Positions 940 through 8,482 of a stretch of 64,000 bases of DNA are shown piece by piece; the first letter of the stretch is position 1, and each line of letters begins with the position of its first letter. Source of the stretch: Bacteroidales bacterium (lineage in GTDB: Bacteria > Bacteroidota > Bacteroidia > Bacteroidales > WCHB1-69). A program made the translations under genes and the position numbers. The notes beneath the pieces were generated by a model. That model had not been told where the DNA came from. It did no database searches and saw nothing but the letters and a program-made list of their open reading frames with translations. The stretch is from NCBI GenBank assembly GCA_045616665.1, contig JAZLHE010000057.1, positions 1,898-65,897 on the forward strand, read 5' to 3'.

Positions 940-3093
940 TTATTCGAATCTCTGATTGAGGATTTCCATAATCTTGATAGCTGCGGTGGCAACGGGGGTA
1001 CCGGGGCCGAAGATTGCCATAGCGCCGTCACGGTAGAGTTCGTCGTAATCCTGTGCAGGGATAACTCCGCCAACAATCACTGCGATGTCCTCGCGGCCGA
1101 GCTTCTTGAGCTCTGCTATGATCTGCGGAACGAGTGTCTTGTGGCCTGCAGCAAGTGAAGATACGCCCACTACGTGAACGTCATTCTCCACAGCCTGCTT
1201 CGCAGCCTCTTCGGGAGTCTGGAACAGAGGTCCCATATCCACGTCGAAACCGCAGTCGGCGTAGCCGGTGGCTACAACCTTGGCTCCGCGGTCGTGACCG
1301 TCCTGGCCGAGTTTTGCAATCATAATACGAGGCTGGCGGCCTTCCTTCTTAGCGAATTCGGCAACCATCTTCCTGGCCTCTTCGAACTGTGCGTTGTTCT
1401 TGACTTCTGCAGAATATACACCTGTGTTCATACGGATAACTGCTTTATAACGTCCAACTACCTTTTCGCAAGCATAGGAGATTTCTCCGAGGGTTGCGCG
1501 AACCTTTGCAGCCTCAACTGCGAGTTCGAGCAGGTTGCCGCTCTTGGTTTCGACAGCCTTGGTGATTGCCTCGAGGGCAGCCTGAACCTTGGCCTCGTCG
1601 CGAGAAGCGCGCAGAGCCTTGAGACGTGCAATCTGGCTTTCGCGAACCTTGGTGTTGTCCACGTCGAGAATCTCGATGGGATCTTCGTGGTCAAGACGAT
1701 ATTCGTTGATACCGATAATCTTGTCGTTGCCCGAGTCGATGCGAGCCTGCTTGCGTGCAGCGGCCTCCTCGATGCGGAGCTTGGGGATGCCGGTTTCGAT
1801 GGCCTTTGCCATACCGCCGAGCTTCTCCACCTCCTCGATATGCTCCCACGCCTTGTGTGCGAGTTCGTTGGTCAGGCTCTCAACATAGTAGGAACCTGCC
1901 CAGGGGTCGATGCTCTTGCATACCTTGGTCTCTTCCTGGATGTAAATCTGGGTATTGCGGGCAATACGTGCGGAGAAGTCGGTAGGCAATGCAATGGCTT
2001 CGTCCAAAGCGTTGGTGTGCAATGACTGGGTATGTCCCAGTGCGGCACCCATTGCTTCAACGCAGGTACGGGTAACGTTGTTAAATGGATCTTGTTCAGT
2101 GAGAGACCAGCCGGAAGTCTGGCAGTGGGTTCTCAAAGCTAAAGATTTAGGATTTTTAGGATTGAATTGTTTAACAATCTTAGCCCAGAGCAAACGGGCA
2201 GCGCGCATCTTGGCGATTTCCATAAAGTGGTTCATGCCAATACCCCAGAAGAAGGACAAACGTGGTGCGAAGTCATCGATATTCATACCGGCATTGATAC
2301 CTGCGCGCAAATATTCCAAACCATCGGCCAAAGTGTAGGCTAATTCGATGTCGCAGGTGGCACCGGCTTCCTGCATGTGGTAACCCGAAATGGAAATGGA
2401 ATTGAATTTCGGCATATTCTTTGAAGTGAATTCAAAGATGTCGGCAATAATCTTCATAGAAGGAAGTGGCGGGTAAATATAGGTATTACGCACCATAAAT
2501 TCCTTCAAAATATCATTTTGGATAGTACCTGTCAATTGTTCCATAGGAACGCCCTGTTCTTCGGCGGCCACGATGTAGAAAGCCAGAATTGGCATCACGG
2601 CACCGTTCATCGTCATAGAGACGGACATTTTGTCCAATGGGATCTGATCGAACAGGATTTTCATATCTAAGATTGAATCTACGGCAACACCGGCTTTACC
2701 AACGTCACCGACGACTCTTGGATGGTCGGAGTCATAACCGCGGTGGGTCGCCAAGTCAAAAGCGATGGACAGACCTTTTTGACCGGCGGCCAAGTTGCGG
2801 CGGTAGAAGGCGTTAGACTCTTCGGCAGTAGAGAAACCCGCATATTGGCGGATGGTCCACGGCTTGTTGACATACATCGTTGAATAAGGTCCACGCAAAT
2901 AAGGCGGAATACCGGCGGCATAGTTCAAATGTTCCATACCGGCGAGGTCGTCTTTGCCATACACGGGCTTTACGGGAATCTGCTCGGCAGTCAGCCACGA
3001 GGTGTCAATATTGTTTTCTTTGGCCCATTCTTCAAAACTTTGTTGTTTTTCGGGCTTTTTCTTGAAATCTACTTTACTGAAATCAGGACGCAT
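940..3093 (-). CDS. mutB: Methylmalonyl-CoA mutase, large (catalytic, B12-binding) subunit
   Basis: 717 aa. The N-terminal mutase barrel carries [37 protein letters not shown]. The C-terminal cobalamin-binding domain carries [25 protein letters not shown] (DxHxxG type). Confidence 0.93.
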
Positions 3094-3127
3094 AATGCAG
3101 TTTTTTGTTATTGTTTATTTCAATCTG

Positions 3128-3135
3128 CAAAAGTA
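3128..3135 (-). promoter_or_regulatory. Bacteroidota -7 promoter box (TAnnTTTG) for mutB
   Basis: The minus strand reads TACTTTTG, about 35 nt upstream of the mutB ATG (3093). Confidence 0.5.
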
Positions 3136-3179
3136 ATATTTTTTTATGAAAAAAGAAAGAGAATAATTAGGAAGAGATT

Positions 3180-4271
3180 TTATTTTCCACTTTTCCGTCT
3201 ATTGCACTCGCGACATAGCATTTGGCAGTTGTCGGCCGTGGTTTTGCCTCCTTCGTGCCACGGCGTGATGTGGTCGGCCTCCATCTGATTCAGTTCGAAA
3301 TGTTCGTGGCACTCGGCGCAAATTCCCTCTTGTGCTTCATAAGCAGCCAATTTCTGAGCATCGGTAAAGGCACGGATGGAAAGGAATCTCTCCTTGCGCG
3401 TCAGAACGTAGGGATAGATGCCCGTTTTCTTCGTTACGTCATCGTCTAAAATCAGTTTCTTGACCTCCTCATCCACCGCATTGCTGTCGATAACGTTATC
3501 TTTGAATTCCTTGTACAGCGCGCCCCAGTCAATGCCCTTCATGATTTTCTTGCGTTCCTTGGTTGGCTGAAACGAGGTCTCTATCCACGTAACGACTGAC
3601 TGGAAAAACTGCCACAAAGCCGCGGCATTGGCGTCGTGCTGGTGATTGGACATATAAACTTCTATGTTGCCGTCCGAGATCCAAGAGATGGCCGTCTCCA
3701 GATAGTCCTGCCGGATGGCGGAGCCGTTGAGGTAGTCTGAGGCGATTTTGGCGGCCACGCAGCCGGGTTTGCTGAAGTAGCGCTTGGCATCGCTTACCCA
3801 AGCACCCGCATACACGGCGTTGCGCAGCTCCTGCTCCGTCAACTCTTCTCCCGCGATGTTGATGGTCTTGAACCACTTGAGTTTCTCGCTGTCGGTGCCG
3901 CTGCAGATATAGACTTGCAGCTCGTAGTCGAGAATCTGCTGTTGTTCGTCGGGTTGCAGGTTGTGAAAATAGCGGAACATATAGGCAAAGTCGCCATTCA
4001 CATACTGACAGATGCTGATGGTGCGCTGCTGTCCGTCGATGATTTCGTAAGTGCCGTCGTCGCGCACGGCCCAGTACATCACGTTGAGCGGAAAACCTTG
4101 CGTGAGCGTGTCGATGACGGCATCGCGCTGTTTTTCCTTATAGACAAACTCGCGTTGGTAAGGCGGGCGCACATCAAGTCGGCCGCCGTAGGCGCGTACG
4201 CCGTTTTCGGCATTGTCCTCGTAACCTTGCGTAAGGTCGCGGACGGTAATCTTGTGTAGTTCTATTTGCAT
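3180..4271 (-). CDS. DUF262 (ParB/GmrSD-N-like) domain fused to a C-terminal HNH endonuclease; candidate modification-sensing/type IV-like nuclease
   Basis: 363 aa. The N-terminal region has RPPYQREFVY and IIDGQQRTISI (the DGQQR motif of DUF262/GmrSD_N). The C-terminal region has CAECHEHF..ADHITPWHEGGKTTADNCQMLCRECNRRK (HNH with flanking Cys pairs). Confidence 0.8.
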   Translation of the reverse strand: MQIELHKITVRDLTQGYEDNAENGVRAYGGRLDVRPPYQREFVYKEKQRDAVIDTLTQGFPLNVMYWAVRDDGTYEIIDGQQRTISICQYVNGDFAYMFRYFHNLQPDEQQQILDYELQVYICSGTDSEKLKWFKTINIAGEELTEQELRNAVYAGAWVSDAKRYFSKPGCVAAKIASDYLNGSAIRQDYLETAISWISDGNIEVYMSNHQHDANAAALWQFFQSVVTWIETSFQPTKERKKIMKGIDWGALYKEFKDNVIDSNAVDEEVKKLILDDDVTKKTGIYPYVLTRKERFLSIRAFTDAQKLAAYEAQEGICAECHEHFELNQMEADHITPWHEGGKTTADNCQMLCRECNRRKSGK

Positions 4272-4309
4272 ATTGCTTGTTTGTTGTTTTTGATGATTTT
4301 TATTTCTTG

Positions 4310-4576
4310 GGCGGCCCGGCTCCTTACGTCGCCGTCACGCTTTCCAGGGGTTCCGTACAGGTAGAGACGCGGCACGCCACGCCTCTACCTGTACCGCCTC
4401 CGGCGCCCTTCCAATCGTTGCCGCGATGCTTCGTGGCAAGTTCTTCCGCGCTGCCACGGTCCTGCAGGCTGACTTGCAGCCATCCCCAGGTTGCGCCCTT
4501 CATTTCATTACGGGCTTACCTGGGGTTACTGAGGTTTTGTCCCTCTGGGACTGCTTAAGGTACGGCTTCGCCGTAA
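4310..4576 (-). ncRNA. Unclassified GC-rich structured element (candidate ncRNA / structured 5-prime leader of the DUF262-HNH gene)
   Basis: No credible CDS lies here. It carries six perfect local helices (4561-4575; 4539-4551; 4484-4491/4518-4525; 4467-4481; 4432-4438/4452-4458; 4355-4394). The 4355-4394 hairpin extends from 12 to 18 bp only on the minus strand, through two G-U pairs. A hand count gives 39/60 G+C at 4381-4440. Confidence 0.4.
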
Positions 4577-4610
4577 TATTTTTTATGAAGTACCACCATT
4601 TTTTTATTTC

Positions 4611-5663
4611 TTATTCTCTTAATTTCTTAATTGTTGTGTTGTATTCTATTTCGCCCTCTGCGGCCAACGGCAATGTCTCTTCCTGCCGTGCGTATTGAAT
4701 GGCTGGTTTGCGGCGGCGGATGAGGATACGGGAAAATTTTTCTTTCCCATTAAGTATAGGTTTCGCTAAATCATACTCGCTATCGCAACCATGATTCAAA
4801 ATTCCAATAATTTCAAATTGTTCGGGATTATATTTATCTAAAAATGTTACAGGAACGCCCATGAGTCCATCATAATCGTATGGAATATTTGCGGTAGGGC
4901 AACATTCTATAGCATCAAAATTATCGTATTTGGGATATTCTATAGGTGAATATGCCTTATACAAGACCAAATCTTCATGCCGTTTACTGATTTCCAAATT
5001 TGTAAACCAATTGACACCCGAAACACGAATCATTCCAGCCCGATGGTCACCAGCAGATGCCGTATCTTCATATTTGCTAATAAAATGTCCTGCCCCTCCT
5101 TTAAATCCATAGCCCAACCAAAGTTTGTTTTCCTTGACCAAAGGAAATATTTCTTTATAATGAATTGCGTTTTGATGTCCTATGATTATAAACTTCTTCT
5201 CATATTCAATCAATTGCGCCACATATTCCCTAAAGAGTGAAAACGGTGGATTAGTCACGACAACATCCGCTTGTTTGAGCAGTTCGATACATTCTTTTGA
5301 GCGAAAATCGCCGTCGCCTTCAAAATAGTTGATGCCGATTTCATCGGGATCGGGAACGCGGTTGTTGTTTTTATCGCCGTTGTACTCCAACCAAATGGCT
5401 CGTTCCGAATCATTCTGCGAAAACAAGTCCCGTTCCTGGTTCTTGTAGCAGGTGGTAATGAGTTTTTTTAGTCCTAATTTTTCAAAATTGTAGCTGAAGT
5501 AGTGAAAGAAATTGCTGATTCTTGGGTCGTCGCAGTTGCAAAGCACCACTTTGTCCTTGAAATGCTCCTTGTAGTGTTTCAGTTCGTTTTCAATATCCAC
5601 AAGCTGCGTGTAAAACTCGTCTTTTTTGGCGTTTTTTGCCTGATTTAGGTTTTTGTTGGCCAT
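4611..5663 (-). CDS. EcoRI-like (PF13651-type) N6-adenine DNA methyltransferase
   Basis: The N-terminus MANKNLNQAKNAKKDEFYTQLVDIENEL is characteristic of this family. The catalytic motif IV is VVTNPPFSLF (NPPF). I trimmed the start to ATG 5663 because the track start at 5693 is a TTG. Confidence 0.8.
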   Translation of the reverse strand: MANKNLNQAKNAKKDEFYTQLVDIENELKHYKEHFKDKVVLCNCDDPRISNFFHYFSYNFEKLGLKKLITTCYKNQERDLFSQNDSERAIWLEYNGDKNNNRVPDPDEIGINYFEGDGDFRSKECIELLKQADVVVTNPPFSLFREYVAQLIEYEKKFIIIGHQNAIHYKEIFPLVKENKLWLGYGFKGGAGHFISKYEDTASAGDHRAGMIRVSGVNWFTNLEISKRHEDLVLYKAYSPIEYPKYDNFDAIECCPTANIPYDYDGLMGVPVTFLDKYNPEQFEIIGILNHGCDSEYDLAKPILNGKEKFSRILIRRRKPAIQYARQEETLPLAAEGEIEYNTTIKKLRE

Positions 5664-5905
5664 ACGATTGATAGTTTTTTGCAATGCTATCAATCAGTGT
5701 TAACGGATAAAAAATACGTGGGCTTTCTTATCCGTTCGACAGGTGTCTACCAAACCCCCACAAAGAAATAAGCAGTGTCCACGTATACGTGAACATTAAC
5801 CTTATTAACTCTTTGTAGAAGGTTTGACACCTACTAAATTATTTCAGTAGTTCAAATGTTGTTTGGTAGACTTCGTCGAACGTGAAATAATAGCTAATGC
5901 GTTAA
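5664..5905 (-). promoter_or_regulatory. Long structured intercistronic leader upstream of the methyltransferase
   Basis: An outer bipartite helix 5733-5740/5875-5882 plus 5745-5754/5862-5871 encloses helix 5760-5765/5811-5816, hairpin 5777-5794 and hairpin 5831-5850. Next comes the 9-bp hairpin 5702-5710/5728-5736, which overlaps the outer helix. A 9-bp hairpin 5666-5674/5687-5695 ends 2 nt before the ATG. Two mismatches become G-U pairs only on the minus strand. Confidence 0.45.
5878..5902 (-). repeat. Copy A of a 21-24 nt direct repeat (GAAYGTGAA(A)TAATAGCTAATGCGT on the + strand)
   Basis: gaacgtgaaataatagctaatgcgt. It lies between the DUF1016 gene and the methyltransferase gene and matches 7139-7162 apart from one base change and one extra A. 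Confidence 0.7.
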
Positions 5906-5975
5906 GTTATAATATGTTATTTAAAATTTCTTTTTCCTGTTTTTCTGTTATTTTTGTTTTGTAAAGATAATATTT

Positions 5976-7067
5976 TTATGTGTGTTCTGTCAGATATTGT
6001 TGAGCAATACTAATGGCCTTGTTTAATTTATCGATAAACCACTGCTTATCGGGAAGATATGTCAGAAATTGAGCAACTTTGATGTTTTCTTCGTCAAGCA
6101 TCATCAGTTCAATATGTTCGGTGTTTCCTTCACTGCATAAAAGAAGCCCGATAGGTTTCTCTTCGCCAGATTGCATCTCATATCTCTGCAAATATTTGAG
6201 ATAAAGTTCCATCTGTCCTTTGTATTCAGGTTTGAATTTGCCCAATTTCAAGTCAATAGCAACCAGCCTTTTCAGTTTTCGATGATAAAAAAGAAGATCC
6301 AAATAATAATCAATACTGTCAATGGACATCCTTTTTTGACGTTCTAAGAAAGCAAAACCCTGGCCTAATTCCAAAATAAAGTTTTCCAACTGGCTGACAA
6401 TGGCATTTTCAAGTTCTTTTTCAGAGAAGATTCCTGAAAGTCCTAAAAAATCCAAGACGTACGAACTTTTGAATACAACATCCGGAGTTATGATTTCATC
6501 ATTAAGTTTCGTTAATTGCTCTGAAATTTCCGTTTCAGATTTTGTGGCAATCATAGAACGTTCGTAAAGCATAGTATCTTGCTTCTGTCGCAAAACTCTC
6601 AAACTCCAATGCTCCGTCAAACACATTTGCTGATAAAACAGTCGTTTTGTAGTCTCTTCAATGGAAGCTAATTCAACGAAATGACTCCAGCTCAATGTTT
6701 GCGACAGTGTTGCAAACATTGACACGTCGGGATATTCGCGGGCAACTTTTACCATTCTCGTCAGTGCGGAGTATGTATAGCCCTTCCCGAATTTTTCTGT
6801 TAATCTTTTCGACAATGTCGCAAGAATTTGCCCTCCATATTGAGAATAGGTTTCATAACGCACCTGCGTGGTAATATAGTTGCCGATACTCCAATAGAGA
6901 CGGCTTATTTCAGCGTTTAACGAAACAGCAACTTTATGGCTCGTTTGTGCAATCAATTGAACGATTCCTTGAAATAAAGAATCGCTGTTTGCCACATCCG
7001 ACCGCACTTTACTTGTTGCATCGCCCAATGCTTCTATATTTGTATTCTGTACCTTCATTGTCTTCAA
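5976..7067 (-). CDS. DUF1016 / YhcG-family PD-(D/E)XK nuclease
   Basis: 363 aa. It has the N-terminal DUF1016 helical region (LYWSIGNYI..YGGQILATLSKRL..GKGYTYSALTRM) and a C-terminal nuclease core (DLLFYHRKLKRLVAIDLKLGKFKPEYKGQMELYL, D..(D/E)xK-like). Confidence 0.8.
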   Translation of the reverse strand: MKTMKVQNTNIEALGDATSKVRSDVANSDSLFQGIVQLIAQTSHKVAVSLNAEISRLYWSIGNYITTQVRYETYSQYGGQILATLSKRLTEKFGKGYTYSALTRMVKVAREYPDVSMFATLSQTLSWSHFVELASIEETTKRLFYQQMCLTEHWSLRVLRQKQDTMLYERSMIATKSETEISEQLTKLNDEIITPDVVFKSSYVLDFLGLSGIFSEKELENAIVSQLENFILELGQGFAFLERQKRMSIDSIDYYLDLLFYHRKLKRLVAIDLKLGKFKPEYKGQMELYLKYLQRYEMQSGEEKPIGLLLCSEGNTEHIELMMLDEENIKVAQFLTYLPDKQWFIDKLNKAISIAQQYLTEHT

Positions 7068-7279: not shown

Positions 7280-8482
7280 TTACTCCAGCATCATTTTGGC
7301 ACGGCAGACGGCTTCGTACAGACTGTCGATTTCCTCTTTGGTGTTGTATAGGGCGAAGGAGGCGCGCACGGTTCCGGGAATGCCGAAGTGGTCCATAATG
7401 GGTTGGGTGCAGTGGTGCCCTGTACGCACGGCAATGCCCAATTTGTCGATGATGGCACCGATGTCTGACGGATGAATGTTGCCAATATTGAAGGAAATAA
7501 TGGCCGCCTTTTGTGCCGAAGTGCCATAGATTTTCAACCCTTGAATGGAAAAAAGTCGTTCCGTGGCGTACGACAGCAGTTCGTGTTCGTATTGGGCAAT
7601 GTTTTCAATTCCGATTTGCAAAATGTACTCAATGGCGCTTCGGAGTCCCATCACGTCGCCCACGCTGGGCGTTCCCGCTTCAAACTTGAAAGGGAGGTCG
7701 TTGTAAGTGGTTTTGGCGAAAGTAACCTGCTTGATCATCTCGCCGCCGCCCTGGTAAGGTTTCATTTGGTTGAGCCATTCCTCTTTGCCGTACATCACGC
7801 CAATGCCCATTGGCGCATACATTTTATGTCCTGAAAAGCAGTAAAAATCACAATCAAGGTCTTGAACATCTACTTTGCAGTGCGAAACGGCCTGGGCTCC
7901 GTCAACGAGTACGGGAATATGATGTTGGTGAGCCATCTCGATGACTTTCTTCACGGGATTGATAGTGCCGAGTGTGTTGGAAACGTGACTAATAGCAACG
8001 ATTTTGGTCTTATCGGATAGGAGCTCTGACATTTTATCTAAGCAGAGTTCGCCATTTTCGTCAAAAGGAATCACTTTCAATATACAACCCCGATCTTCAC
8101 ACAAAAACTGCCAAGGCACGATGTTGGCGTGATGTTCCATTTCGCTGATGACGATTTCGTCGCCTTCGTGCAAGAAAGTCCGACCAAAGGAAGAGGCCAC
8201 CAAGTTGATGGAATCAGTAGCGCCGCGAGTGAAAATCACTTCGTAGTGATGCTTGGCATTGATGAATTGCCGAACGCTCTCGCGAGCCACTTCAAATTCG
8301 TCGGTGGCTTTTTGGCTGAGGTAATGCACGCCGCGATGAATGTTGCTGTTGATTTGCGTATAGTAGTTGTTGAGGGCGTCAATCACTACCTGCGGTTTCT
8401 GCGTTGTGGCAGCATTGTCCAAATATACCAAAGGATGTTTGTATATTTGTTGATTTAGAATGCAAAAATCTTCTCTATTCAT
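7280..8482 (-). CDS. sufS: Cysteine desulfurase, SufS-type (class V aminotransferase)
   Basis: Motifs seen: VYLDNAATTQKP, SGHKMYAPMGIGVMYG (PLP lysine) and RTGHHCTQP (active-site Cys loop). I trimmed the start to ATG 8482 (MNREDF). It overlaps the upstream stop as ATGAATAG. Confidence 0.9.
   Translation of the reverse strand: MNREDFCILNQQIYKHPLVYLDNAATTQKPQVVIDALNNYYTQINSNIHRGVHYLSQKATDEFEVARESVRQFINAKHHYEVIFTRGATDSINLVASSFGRTFLHEGDEIVISEMEHHANIVPWQFLCEDRGCILKVIPFDENGELCLDKMSELLSDKTKIVAISHVSNTLGTINPVKKVIEMAHQHHIPVLVDGAQAVSHCKVDVQDLDCDFYCFSGHKMYAPMGIGVMYGKEEWLNQMKPYQGGGEMIKQVTFAKTTYNDLPFKFEAGTPSVGDVMGLRSAIEYILQIGIENIAQYEHELLSYATERLFSIQGLKIYGTSAQKAAIISFNIGNIHPSDIGAIIDKLGIAVRTGHHCTQPIMDHFGIPGTVRASFALYNTKEEIDSLYEAVCRAKMMLE

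Follow-up and report, generated by a model that had tools for sequence, protein, structure and literature searches.

The stretch of DNA considered here, 64,000 nt of the contig JAZLHE010000057.1 from a Bacteroidales bacterium (the window, in what follows), carries on its minus strand a gene for an EcoRI-like N6-adenine methyltransferase (the methylase), directly followed by a gene for a DUF262-HNH protein (the nuclease). Between them lies a GC-rich segment dense in hairpins, positions 4310-4576, which an earlier note on this DNA had put forward as a candidate structured RNA of about 270 nt. Comparison with homologous loci and with metagenomes leads to a different description: the spacer is very likely to be a lineage-specific mosaic of dispersed small GC-rich hairpin repeats, resembling a cluster of bacterial interspersed mosaic elements (BIMEs), and not one RNA gene. 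The best explanation overall, and one that we consider probable, is that of a co-transcribed intercistronic hairpin cluster of the repetitive extragenic palindrome (REP)/BIME kind that would modulate the methylase-to-nuclease ratio. That the cluster plays the RNA-level role proposed below is a more tentative and somewhat doubtful proposition; the co-transcription that it supposes, and the effects on mRNA stability and on the balance of methylase to nuclease, are inferred.

The methylase and DUF262-HNH genes form a conserved two-gene module: of 80 related loci, 78 have an EcoRI-like methylase directly upstream of the nuclease and in the same orientation. What lies between the two genes is highly variable. 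Across 77 homologous loci the length of the spacer ranges from 0 to ~1250 nt and is 53 nt or less in 32 of them; even where the nucleases are 91-92% identical, spacers measure 16, 111-134 or 163 nt. The window's spacer, counted from the methylase stop to the nuclease ATG, occupies 4272-4610 (339 nt) and is composite. Read along the gene strand, its positions 24-128 (window 4483-4587) match only L002-L004, with ~92% identity by BLASTN, and its positions 182-339 (window 4272-4429) match only L001, with 99%; the piece between positions 128 and 182 has no BLASTN match at all. Three further close homologues of the nuclease have the core element, described below, alone. The complete spacer element was found in no locus besides the window, and no second copy of it was found within the 64 kb. 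With 32 of the 77 spacers this short and the whole element in no other locus, the spacer is not a conserved companion of DUF262-HNH; the earlier note had said beforehand that a lack of conservation next to homologous nuclease genes would tell against its proposal, and this is what the comparison shows. The single RNA of ~270 nt likewise dissolves into pieces that match L002-L004, L001 or nothing.

The pieces nevertheless belong to recognizable kinds. In about one third of the homologous loci the spacer is GC-rich and made of a recurring two-hairpin unit, which consists of a first hairpin, H1 (GYCCC-NNN-GGGRC), a linker of 12-14 nt (GAcA...UAAG) and a second hairpin, H2, with a variable stem. 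R1, a covariance model of this unit built from the methylase-nuclease spacers, gives 61 matches in 747 kb, mostly on the gene strand and with 1-4 copies per spacer; ~45 of the 61 fall into the ~10 kb of methylase-nuclease spacers, as against ~680 kb of flanks. In the R1 alignment 98.5% of the cells pair, and both sides change in 8 of 10 pairs. In the window R1 has a single match, at 4519-4551 on the minus strand. The unit also turns up in other settings at these loci. In many of them (L012, L019, L033, L046, L024 and L032, for example) the loop of the first hairpin supplies the UAG that stops the methylase (GUC CCG UAG GGAC). L012, L019, L033 and L046 (3660-3985) have 138-nt tandem repeats in up to 3 copies, composed of the unit and a long GCAGCCAUG...CAUGGCUGC hairpin. 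Four loci have two-hairpin units just after the nuclease gene (L018 and L031, 5096-5440; L022, 5113-5159; L039, 5161-5207), and one downstream unit in each of L018 and L031 is inverted, which places a hairpin and a T-run on the gene strand.

The core of the window's spacer also recurs between genes that have nothing to do with this module. An exact scan with the 18-mer GCAGTCCCRGAGGGACAA yielded at least 120 metagenome stretches, and neither the nuclease nor the methylase is encoded among the matches listed. One conserved element is common to 80 of these stretches, which come mostly from rumen samples. The family consensus begins with UUCCUURAGCA and continues with H1 (GUCCC-GGA-GGGAC), AA, a small hairpin (GCRC-GNA-GYGC), AAUUAA and H2 (CCCCACAY...RUGUGGGG), the last enclosing another small hairpin. 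A second model, R2, was made from 42 metagenome copies in unrelated operons, with the window and its relatives excluded. It matches the window at 4483-4562 on the minus strand over model positions 1-79 of 79, with 53.9 bits (E=2e-13); this is the sole significant match in the 64 kb and makes the window's core a member of the family. The copy is slightly atypical, being without the small middle hairpin of typical copies (H1b) and having a longer insert in H2. In the 581 kb of the metagenome contigs listed R2 finds 125 matches, and as many as 5 occur together on a contig of 14 kb. Three viral contigs from IMG/VR (L214-L216) contain the exact 18-mer as well. Literature searches turned up neither the sequences of the element nor any REP-like repeats in Prevotella.

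Conservation in this family extends to structure. Among 102 distinct copies 97.7% of the cells are paired and both sides change in 13 of 17 pairs; pairing and covariation are far lower in shuffled and slid controls. Copies that do not have the exact 18-mer keep the flanks, and their H1 covaries (GUCCC/GGGAC, GCCCC/GGGGC, GCCUC/GAGGC, GUCUC/GAGAC). Read on the gene strand, the 102 copies contain 43 G-U as against 13 A-C pairs. The surroundings of the element are diverse: among the matches listed, 59 downstream proteins fall into 40 clusters and 69 upstream proteins into 42. Examples are AcrB followed by OEP, MacB/FtsX paralogues and ABC permeases, a CoA-transferase followed by an acyl-CoA dehydrogenase, a helix-turn-helix protein followed by CreD, and a sigma-54 activator. 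In the same set of matches the upstream gene is co-directional with the element in 54 of 56 cases, at a median distance of 52 nt from its stop, and the downstream gene in 46 of 54, its start lying anywhere from 60 to 708 nt past the element. The co-orientation of the upstream gene, together with the excess of G-U pairs, indicates that the element follows genes and that its structure is kept on the transcribed strand. The window's element begins 49 nt past the methylase stop, just as in the rest of the family, and its natural partner is therefore the upstream methylase cistron and not the nuclease.

The element is often preceded by AT-rich tandem repeats. Of 66 distinct rumen loci, 34 have three or more tandem heptamers within the 80 nt before it, the types being (GTTAGYA)n, (GAATKAA)n, (AGGCAAT)n, (GTGATTT)n and (GACGTAA)n; the same test finds zero loci at periods of 5, 6 and 9 and one locus at a period of 8. 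Since each type of heptamer has a stop trinucleotide, three copies place stops in all three frames. The upstream open reading frame (ORF) often terminates at the first heptamer (as in L184, ~7370-7418, L185 and L137). In the window the AT-rich repeat (4598-4632) straddles the methylase stop, in the manner of the stop-containing heptamers before the element in other operons: the stop codon (4611-4613) and the last ~6 codons of the gene lie within it. In both its position and its AT-rich repeat the window's element is thus like the rest of the family. We know of no description of three-frame stop repeats joined to a structured element.

The remainder of the spacer is made of other material (Table 1). 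The 18-bp hairpin of its GC-rich module B has a core, GTAGAGACG...CGTCTCTAC (4361-4388), which occurs 38 times in the 777 kb of related loci from many genomes; the copies stand at varied positions, with compensatory changes in the inner palindrome, and one of them is in the 64-kb window. In L095 and L130 (~2600) and in L204 and L207 (~1545 and ~705) this palindrome is nested in the linker of the two-hairpin element, where it replaces the small middle hairpin. Among 213 loci module B has no relative outside L001. In the 3' part of the module lies GGCGACGUAAG. At other methylase-nuclease loci this is the loop sequence that the gene-proximal unit conserves (L010, L012, L019, L032, L033, L046, L067 and others have GGCGACGTAAG), and module B may be a degenerate two-hairpin unit, although R1 finds no match there. 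The orphan segment 4430-4482 has no relative by BLASTN against the same 213 loci. The hairpin H0, next to the core, is present in L002-L004, L081-L083 and L217-L219, and a T-run behind it on the plus strand gives it the look of a terminator. A-rich leaders similar to that of the window precede the nuclease ATG in other loci.

Table 1. Parts of the methylase-nuclease spacer and its two flanking genes, in gene-strand order (window coordinates)
Feature	Position	Strand	Basis
EcoRI-like N6-adenine methyltransferase, upstream cistron	4611-5693	-	Pfam PF13651, E=3e-134
AT-rich tandem repeat TAAGAAAT, 4.4 copies, period 8 or 7	4598-4632	-	Tandem Repeats Finder
Hairpin H0, UACGGC-GAA-GCCGUA, 6 bp	4561-4575	-	fold; kept in closest relatives of the locus only
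Core two-hairpin element, Acido-Lenti-1-like 'rumen type'	4483-4562	-	R2 and R1 matches
Core flank CCUUAAGCA	4552-4560	-	
Core H1, GUCCC-AGA-GGGAC, 5 bp	4539-4551	-	fold
Core linker, 13 nt	4526-4538	-	
Core H2, 8-bp outer stem CCCCAGGU/ACCUGGGG enclosing inner GCCC/GGGC hairpin	4484-4525	-	fold
Orphan GC-rich segment with the next two hairpins	4430-4482	-	folds
Hairpin, 5 bp	4467-4481		fold
Hairpin, 7 bp	4432-4458		fold
Module B, GC-rich, holds 18-bp hairpin 4355-4394	4310-4429	-	BLASTN: common to L001 only, 99%
REP-like palindrome core GTAGAGRCG-N10-CGYCTCTAC	4361-4388	unassigned	dispersed palindrome family
A-rich unstructured leader, abuts nuclease ATG	4272-4309	-	sequence; unpaired in minimum-free-energy fold
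DUF262 (GmrSD_N) + HNH nuclease, downstream cistron	3180-4271	-	PF03235, E=5e-19; PF01844, E=1e-13

The stretch 4310-4576 is non-coding and rich in structure, and every observation that the earlier note had made on its letters is borne out. The hand counts of G+C, 39 of 60 at 4381-4440 and 22 of 60 at 4741-4800, are exact on recount, and the stretch as a whole has 166 G+C in 267 nt (62%). Its composition is foreign, as had been claimed, by comparison with the methylase gene (39%) and with the mean of the 64-kb window (42%), but not by comparison with the DUF262-HNH gene (53%). Against dinucleotide shuffles the spacer 4272-4610 has a folding z of -6.8 on the minus and -4.5 on the plus strand; its minimum-free-energy fold is a row of local hairpins without compact long-range architecture. 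All six helices that had been listed do fold. The hairpin at 4355-4394 forms an uninterrupted stem of 18 bp with a 4-nt loop (-32.4 kcal/mol) only as minus-strand RNA; on the plus strand it is an interrupted 12-bp stem (-24.4 kcal/mol). Two ORFs, of 93 aa on the plus and 59 aa on the minus strand, have no Pfam match, and in a set of 5.8 billion proteins neither has any homologue apart from the ORF call of the window itself; neither is kept in L001-L004, the loci that have parts of the region in common. The judgement that no known RNA family is present also holds: Rfam, run over 3000-6500 at E<=10, gives no match in the spacer element, RF01687 and HEARO included, and a scan for tRNA and tmRNA finds no gene. 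Terminator-like patterns in the spacer are confined to the plus strand, at 4561-4575 and 4475-4495; within 4272-4610 the minus (gene) strand has none.

The core element has a counterpart among described RNA motifs. Acido-Lenti-1 (RF01687) was found in Acidobacteria and Lentisphaerae, in the latter sometimes near group II introns (Weinberg et al. 2010, PMC2864571). Its model gives sub-threshold antisense matches to units in L046 (23.6 bits) and L021 (22.2 bits), the gathering score being 37. Soil contigs with the same 18-mer as the rumen copies reach 37.9-54.7 bits, above that score, on the opposite strand; rumen copies with the 18-mer have no Rfam match, and the window's copy does not match RF01687 even at E<=10. 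In the published seed alignment (PMC2864571, supplementary file 183), read in the Rfam orientation, there are 8 G-U as against 38 A-C pairs (these are sequence counts, many of them from one genome), which makes the strand opposite to Rfam the better RNA strand. Nor do the Bacteroidales relatives conform to the strand that Rfam annotates as transcribed, since both the co-orientation with upstream genes (54/56) and the G-U excess (43 to 13) are found on the opposite one. Going by the published seed and by L104, L115 and L143, Acido-Lenti-1 may be annotated on the wrong strand in Rfam. The GUCCY-hairpin motif (Weinberg 2010) was also considered, on account of the GUCCC with which H1 starts, and was rejected; its layout differs, the hairpin being flanked by GUC and CY.

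How such a cluster might work can be sketched as follows. Its components are a cassette that many operons of rumen Bacteroidales have, consisting of AT-rich, stop-carrying tandem repeats and the ~80-nt two-hairpin element, together with orphan hairpins and a GTAG...CTAC palindrome set in a longer stem. The cluster would be transcribed within the methylase-nuclease mRNA and would act, if it acts at all, as RNA. Translation would halt on reaching the AT-rich repeats or within them. The stable hairpins behind the methylase would then protect its 3' end, or else mark a point of processing or attenuation, and they would set the methylase segment apart from the A-rich leader of the nuclease. The net result would be that expression of the methylase is favoured over that of the nuclease, an effect of the kind proposed for REP/BIME clusters.

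A number of points weigh against this account. The spacer element is dispensable for the methylase-nuclease pair, because many homologous loci have none. About 170 nt of the spacer (4310-4482 minus the palindrome) have no relatives identified beyond L001. The metagenome sample (L094-L213) was drawn by the exact 18-mer, so that how conserved this part of the element looks is biased; the alignments used for the pair counts are partly fitted to the model; and the tallies of G-U and A-C pairs count sequences, not independent events. The Bacteroidetes -7 box, TAnnTTTG, is absent from the spacer on both strands, which fits co-transcription without proving it. The claim that the structure belongs to RNA of the gene strand, also made in the earlier note, stands for the conserved core, by its G-U excess and its 54/56 upstream co-orientation. 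The raw folding energies of 29 whole spacers show no consistent preference for either strand (10 vs 19, p=0.21). The folding z-scores of the same 29 spacers favour the gene strand (-3.0 vs -1.7), but the choice of strand does not draw on these folds.

Selfish or neutral mobile DNA is the rival that comes closest, agreeing with the REP/BIME-like cluster on the nature of the region and differing on the reason for which structure is conserved. It would see in the hairpins non-autonomous elements resembling REPs, REPINs or miniature inverted-repeat transposable elements, served by a transposase that acts on single-stranded DNA hairpins; structure would be kept for the sake of transposition, and the spacer would be a tolerated landing site. 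Much of the distribution is what such elements would produce: presence/absence polymorphism among near-identical loci, copies scattered among unrelated operons, and a palindrome that is nested within the two-hairpin element in some copies. Read on either strand, this palindrome begins with GTAG, which tags the REPs associated with RAYT transposases. That methylase genes end within the first hairpin or among the AT-rich repeats is also as expected after insertion at the 3' end of a gene, and G-U pairs are very few in the units of the methylase-nuclease spacers. Most of the data are compatible with this rival, which we nevertheless think rather unlikely. The 96% co-orientation with the upstream gene exceeds what a replication-strand bias would give (orientation to transcription and to replication being confounded in these data), and G-U pairs outnumber A-C pairs by 43 to 13 on the transcribed strand. 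Comparisons of filled with empty loci reveal neither terminal inverted repeats nor target duplications, the copies on one contig have diverged and thus speak against a recent burst, and no transposase was identified, though no systematic search for one was made. Transcription of the other strand offers a further alternative, in which a small antisense RNA, read from the plus strand and ending at 4561-4575 and the T-run, represses the nuclease leader, as happens in some restriction-modification systems. The terminator-like hairpin and its tail (ATATTTTTTA) recur, as hairpin and T-rich tail, in the closest relatives of the locus, and Rfam places Acido-Lenti-1 in the plus-strand orientation. H0, however, is absent from the copies in other operons, no plus-strand TAnnTTTG box lies near the element, and the preponderance of G-U over A-C pairs in the family and the energies of the 18-bp hairpin (-32.4 vs -24.4 kcal/mol) both favour the minus strand, as does the Acido-Lenti-1 seed itself with its 8 G-U to 38 A-C pairs on the Rfam strand; an antisense RNA is accordingly improbable.

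A dedicated structured RNA for DUF262-HNH, a leader or guide-like RNA on the lines of HEARO or the IscB omegaRNA, was the analogy that the earlier note had raised. The element does lie immediately 5' of the nuclease gene and on its strand, and R1 units are strongly enriched in this spacer (~45 of 61 matches), with units after the nuclease gene in four loci. The enrichment is explicable by shared ancestry of the cassette, however, and the comparative data have largely refuted the proposal, which is now very improbable: 32 of the 77 loci are essentially without a spacer, the whole element is in the window only, and in unrelated operons the same core keeps its position with respect to the upstream stop and not to the downstream start, which may be 60-708 nt off. 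Neither HEARO nor any other Rfam family matches, and the protein is without RuvC or IscB features. The analogy is left without support, because the core recurs between unrelated genes, the 18-bp hairpin is one of a family of dispersed palindromes and the element is not conserved along with the nuclease. That the region is the remnant of a decayed protein-coding gene is hardly credible; the 93-aa and 59-aa ORFs do span it, but they have neither Pfam match nor homologue, they are not kept in L001-L004, and hairpin repeats account for the sequence.

The REP/BIME-like cluster can be carried one step further, to a more ambitious proposal that we regard as unlikely as it stands. The arrangement would be an undescribed and widespread 'operon punctuation' cassette of rumen and gut Bacteroidales, in which three-frame-stop tandem repeats (mostly heptamers) are joined to a two-hairpin RNA, an expanded relative of Acido-Lenti-1 with its true strand the reverse of that in Rfam, which an RNase or an RNA-binding protein would specifically recognise, thereby setting how strongly neighbouring cistrons are expressed relative to one another. 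If this were true, arrays of 0-4 units would tune or delay the nuclease with respect to the methylase and would constitute an RNA-based alternative to controller proteins. The phylum of the Bacteroidales is not known to use Shine-Dalgarno-based initiation, and how expression is balanced within its operons is poorly understood. Whatever the fate of this proposal, Acido-Lenti-1, whose function has been unknown since 2010, gains a context and a probable strand, and a divergent version of it, invisible to Rfam, is shown to be a high-copy intercistronic element of rumen Bacteroidales. The element also accounts for intergenic GC-rich 'islands' which scans of this sort might take for new RNA genes. 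The comparative data lend no support to a large new RNA that works with an HNH nuclease, striking as that would have been.

The genes on either side have a history of their own. Relatives of the nuclease number in the thousands, many of them 75-92% identical, in metagenome-assembled genomes of Bacteroidales from rumen and gut; Pfam finds GmrSD_N and HNH in the protein and nothing else. Across the window and loci L001-L093 the nuclease is far better conserved (75-92% at the amino acid level) than the methylase (42-84%) and its G+C content is ~10-15 points higher (~53% vs 35-44%). Along the nuclease gene the identity of the window to L001 declines from 99% at the 5' end to 74% at the 3' end, a sign that the region has been shuffled by recombination. 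Taken together, the gap in conservation, the gap in G+C and the drop in identity to L001 suggest that the nuclease gene is exchanged among methylase backgrounds by recombination, which would be odd for a site-matched restriction enzyme. Directly upstream of the methylase is a gene for a YhcG/DUF1016 PD-(D/E)XK nuclease (5976-7067, minus), which several relatives (L082-L084) also have, and the YhcG, methylase and DUF262-HNH genes may be a small defence island. Between the YhcG and methylase genes there is a terminator-like hairpin with a T-rich tail (5776-5795, minus), which also yields a chance-level Rfam match to mir-1277; no TAnnTTTG box was found between this hairpin and the methylase start. 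Synteny downstream of the pair varies, with methylmalonyl-CoA mutase in the window and other genes elsewhere.

Among known systems, HEARO and the IscB omegaRNA have in common with the present case only that a structured non-coding stretch stands beside a gene with an HNH domain; the protein here is GmrSD_N plus HNH without RuvC, HEARO does not match, and the core is at home in unrelated operons. The pneumococcal BOX, enterobacterial ERIC and Neisseria Correia elements are intergenic repeats transcribed along with genes; like the present element they are modular with variable sub-units, lie next to or between genes, form stable RNA structures and are polymorphic in presence and absence among strains. 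To our knowledge they have no sequence relationship to the element described here and no counterpart of its AT-rich stop-containing tandem repeats, and terminal inverted repeats are not seen in it. REP and BIME sequences are dispersed GC-rich palindromes of 26-30 bp that form mosaics with other repeats; they have been proposed to be transcribed and to stabilize or attenuate mRNA (PMC3733652). Most REPs are found behind genes, where the neighbouring ORFs are unidirectional or convergent, and they have been proposed to be RNA elements (Di Nocera et al. 2013, PMC3733652). The palindrome of the present spacer is likewise short and GC-rich, and it begins with GTAG; its 38 copies in 777 kb are drawn from many genomes, with one in the 64-kb window. 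Its GTAG, however, pairs with CTAC at the base of the stem and is present on both strands, in contrast to the REP tag (GTAG/CGTC), which is unpaired at one end (PMC3733652), and the two-hairpin element is not palindromic overall and has a fixed orientation relative to genes.

Acido-Lenti-1 stands close as well. The 18-mer GCAGTCCCGGAGGGACAA is identical to soil sequences that score above the Rfam gathering threshold, and H1 (GUCCCGUAGGGAC) is identical to the H1 of some published seed members. Read as the reverse complement, the parts agree in order and size, with a 5-bp triloop hairpin, a linker of 12-13 nt (GACA...UAG/UAA) and a covarying 8-bp stem, except that where Acido-Lenti-1 has a tetraloop, H2 in the window has a 26-nt insert with an inner hairpin. 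Both elements are multi-copy and often arranged in tandem arrays. There are further differences: the rumen type adds a small hairpin in the linker (not in the window's copy) and a conserved 5' flank, UUCCUURAGCA; its orientation is the reverse of that in the Rfam model; and it occurs in Bacteroidales, ~50 nt after a co-directional gene. The core element of the methylase-nuclease spacer is taken here to be an expanded, reverse-strand relative of Acido-Lenti-1.

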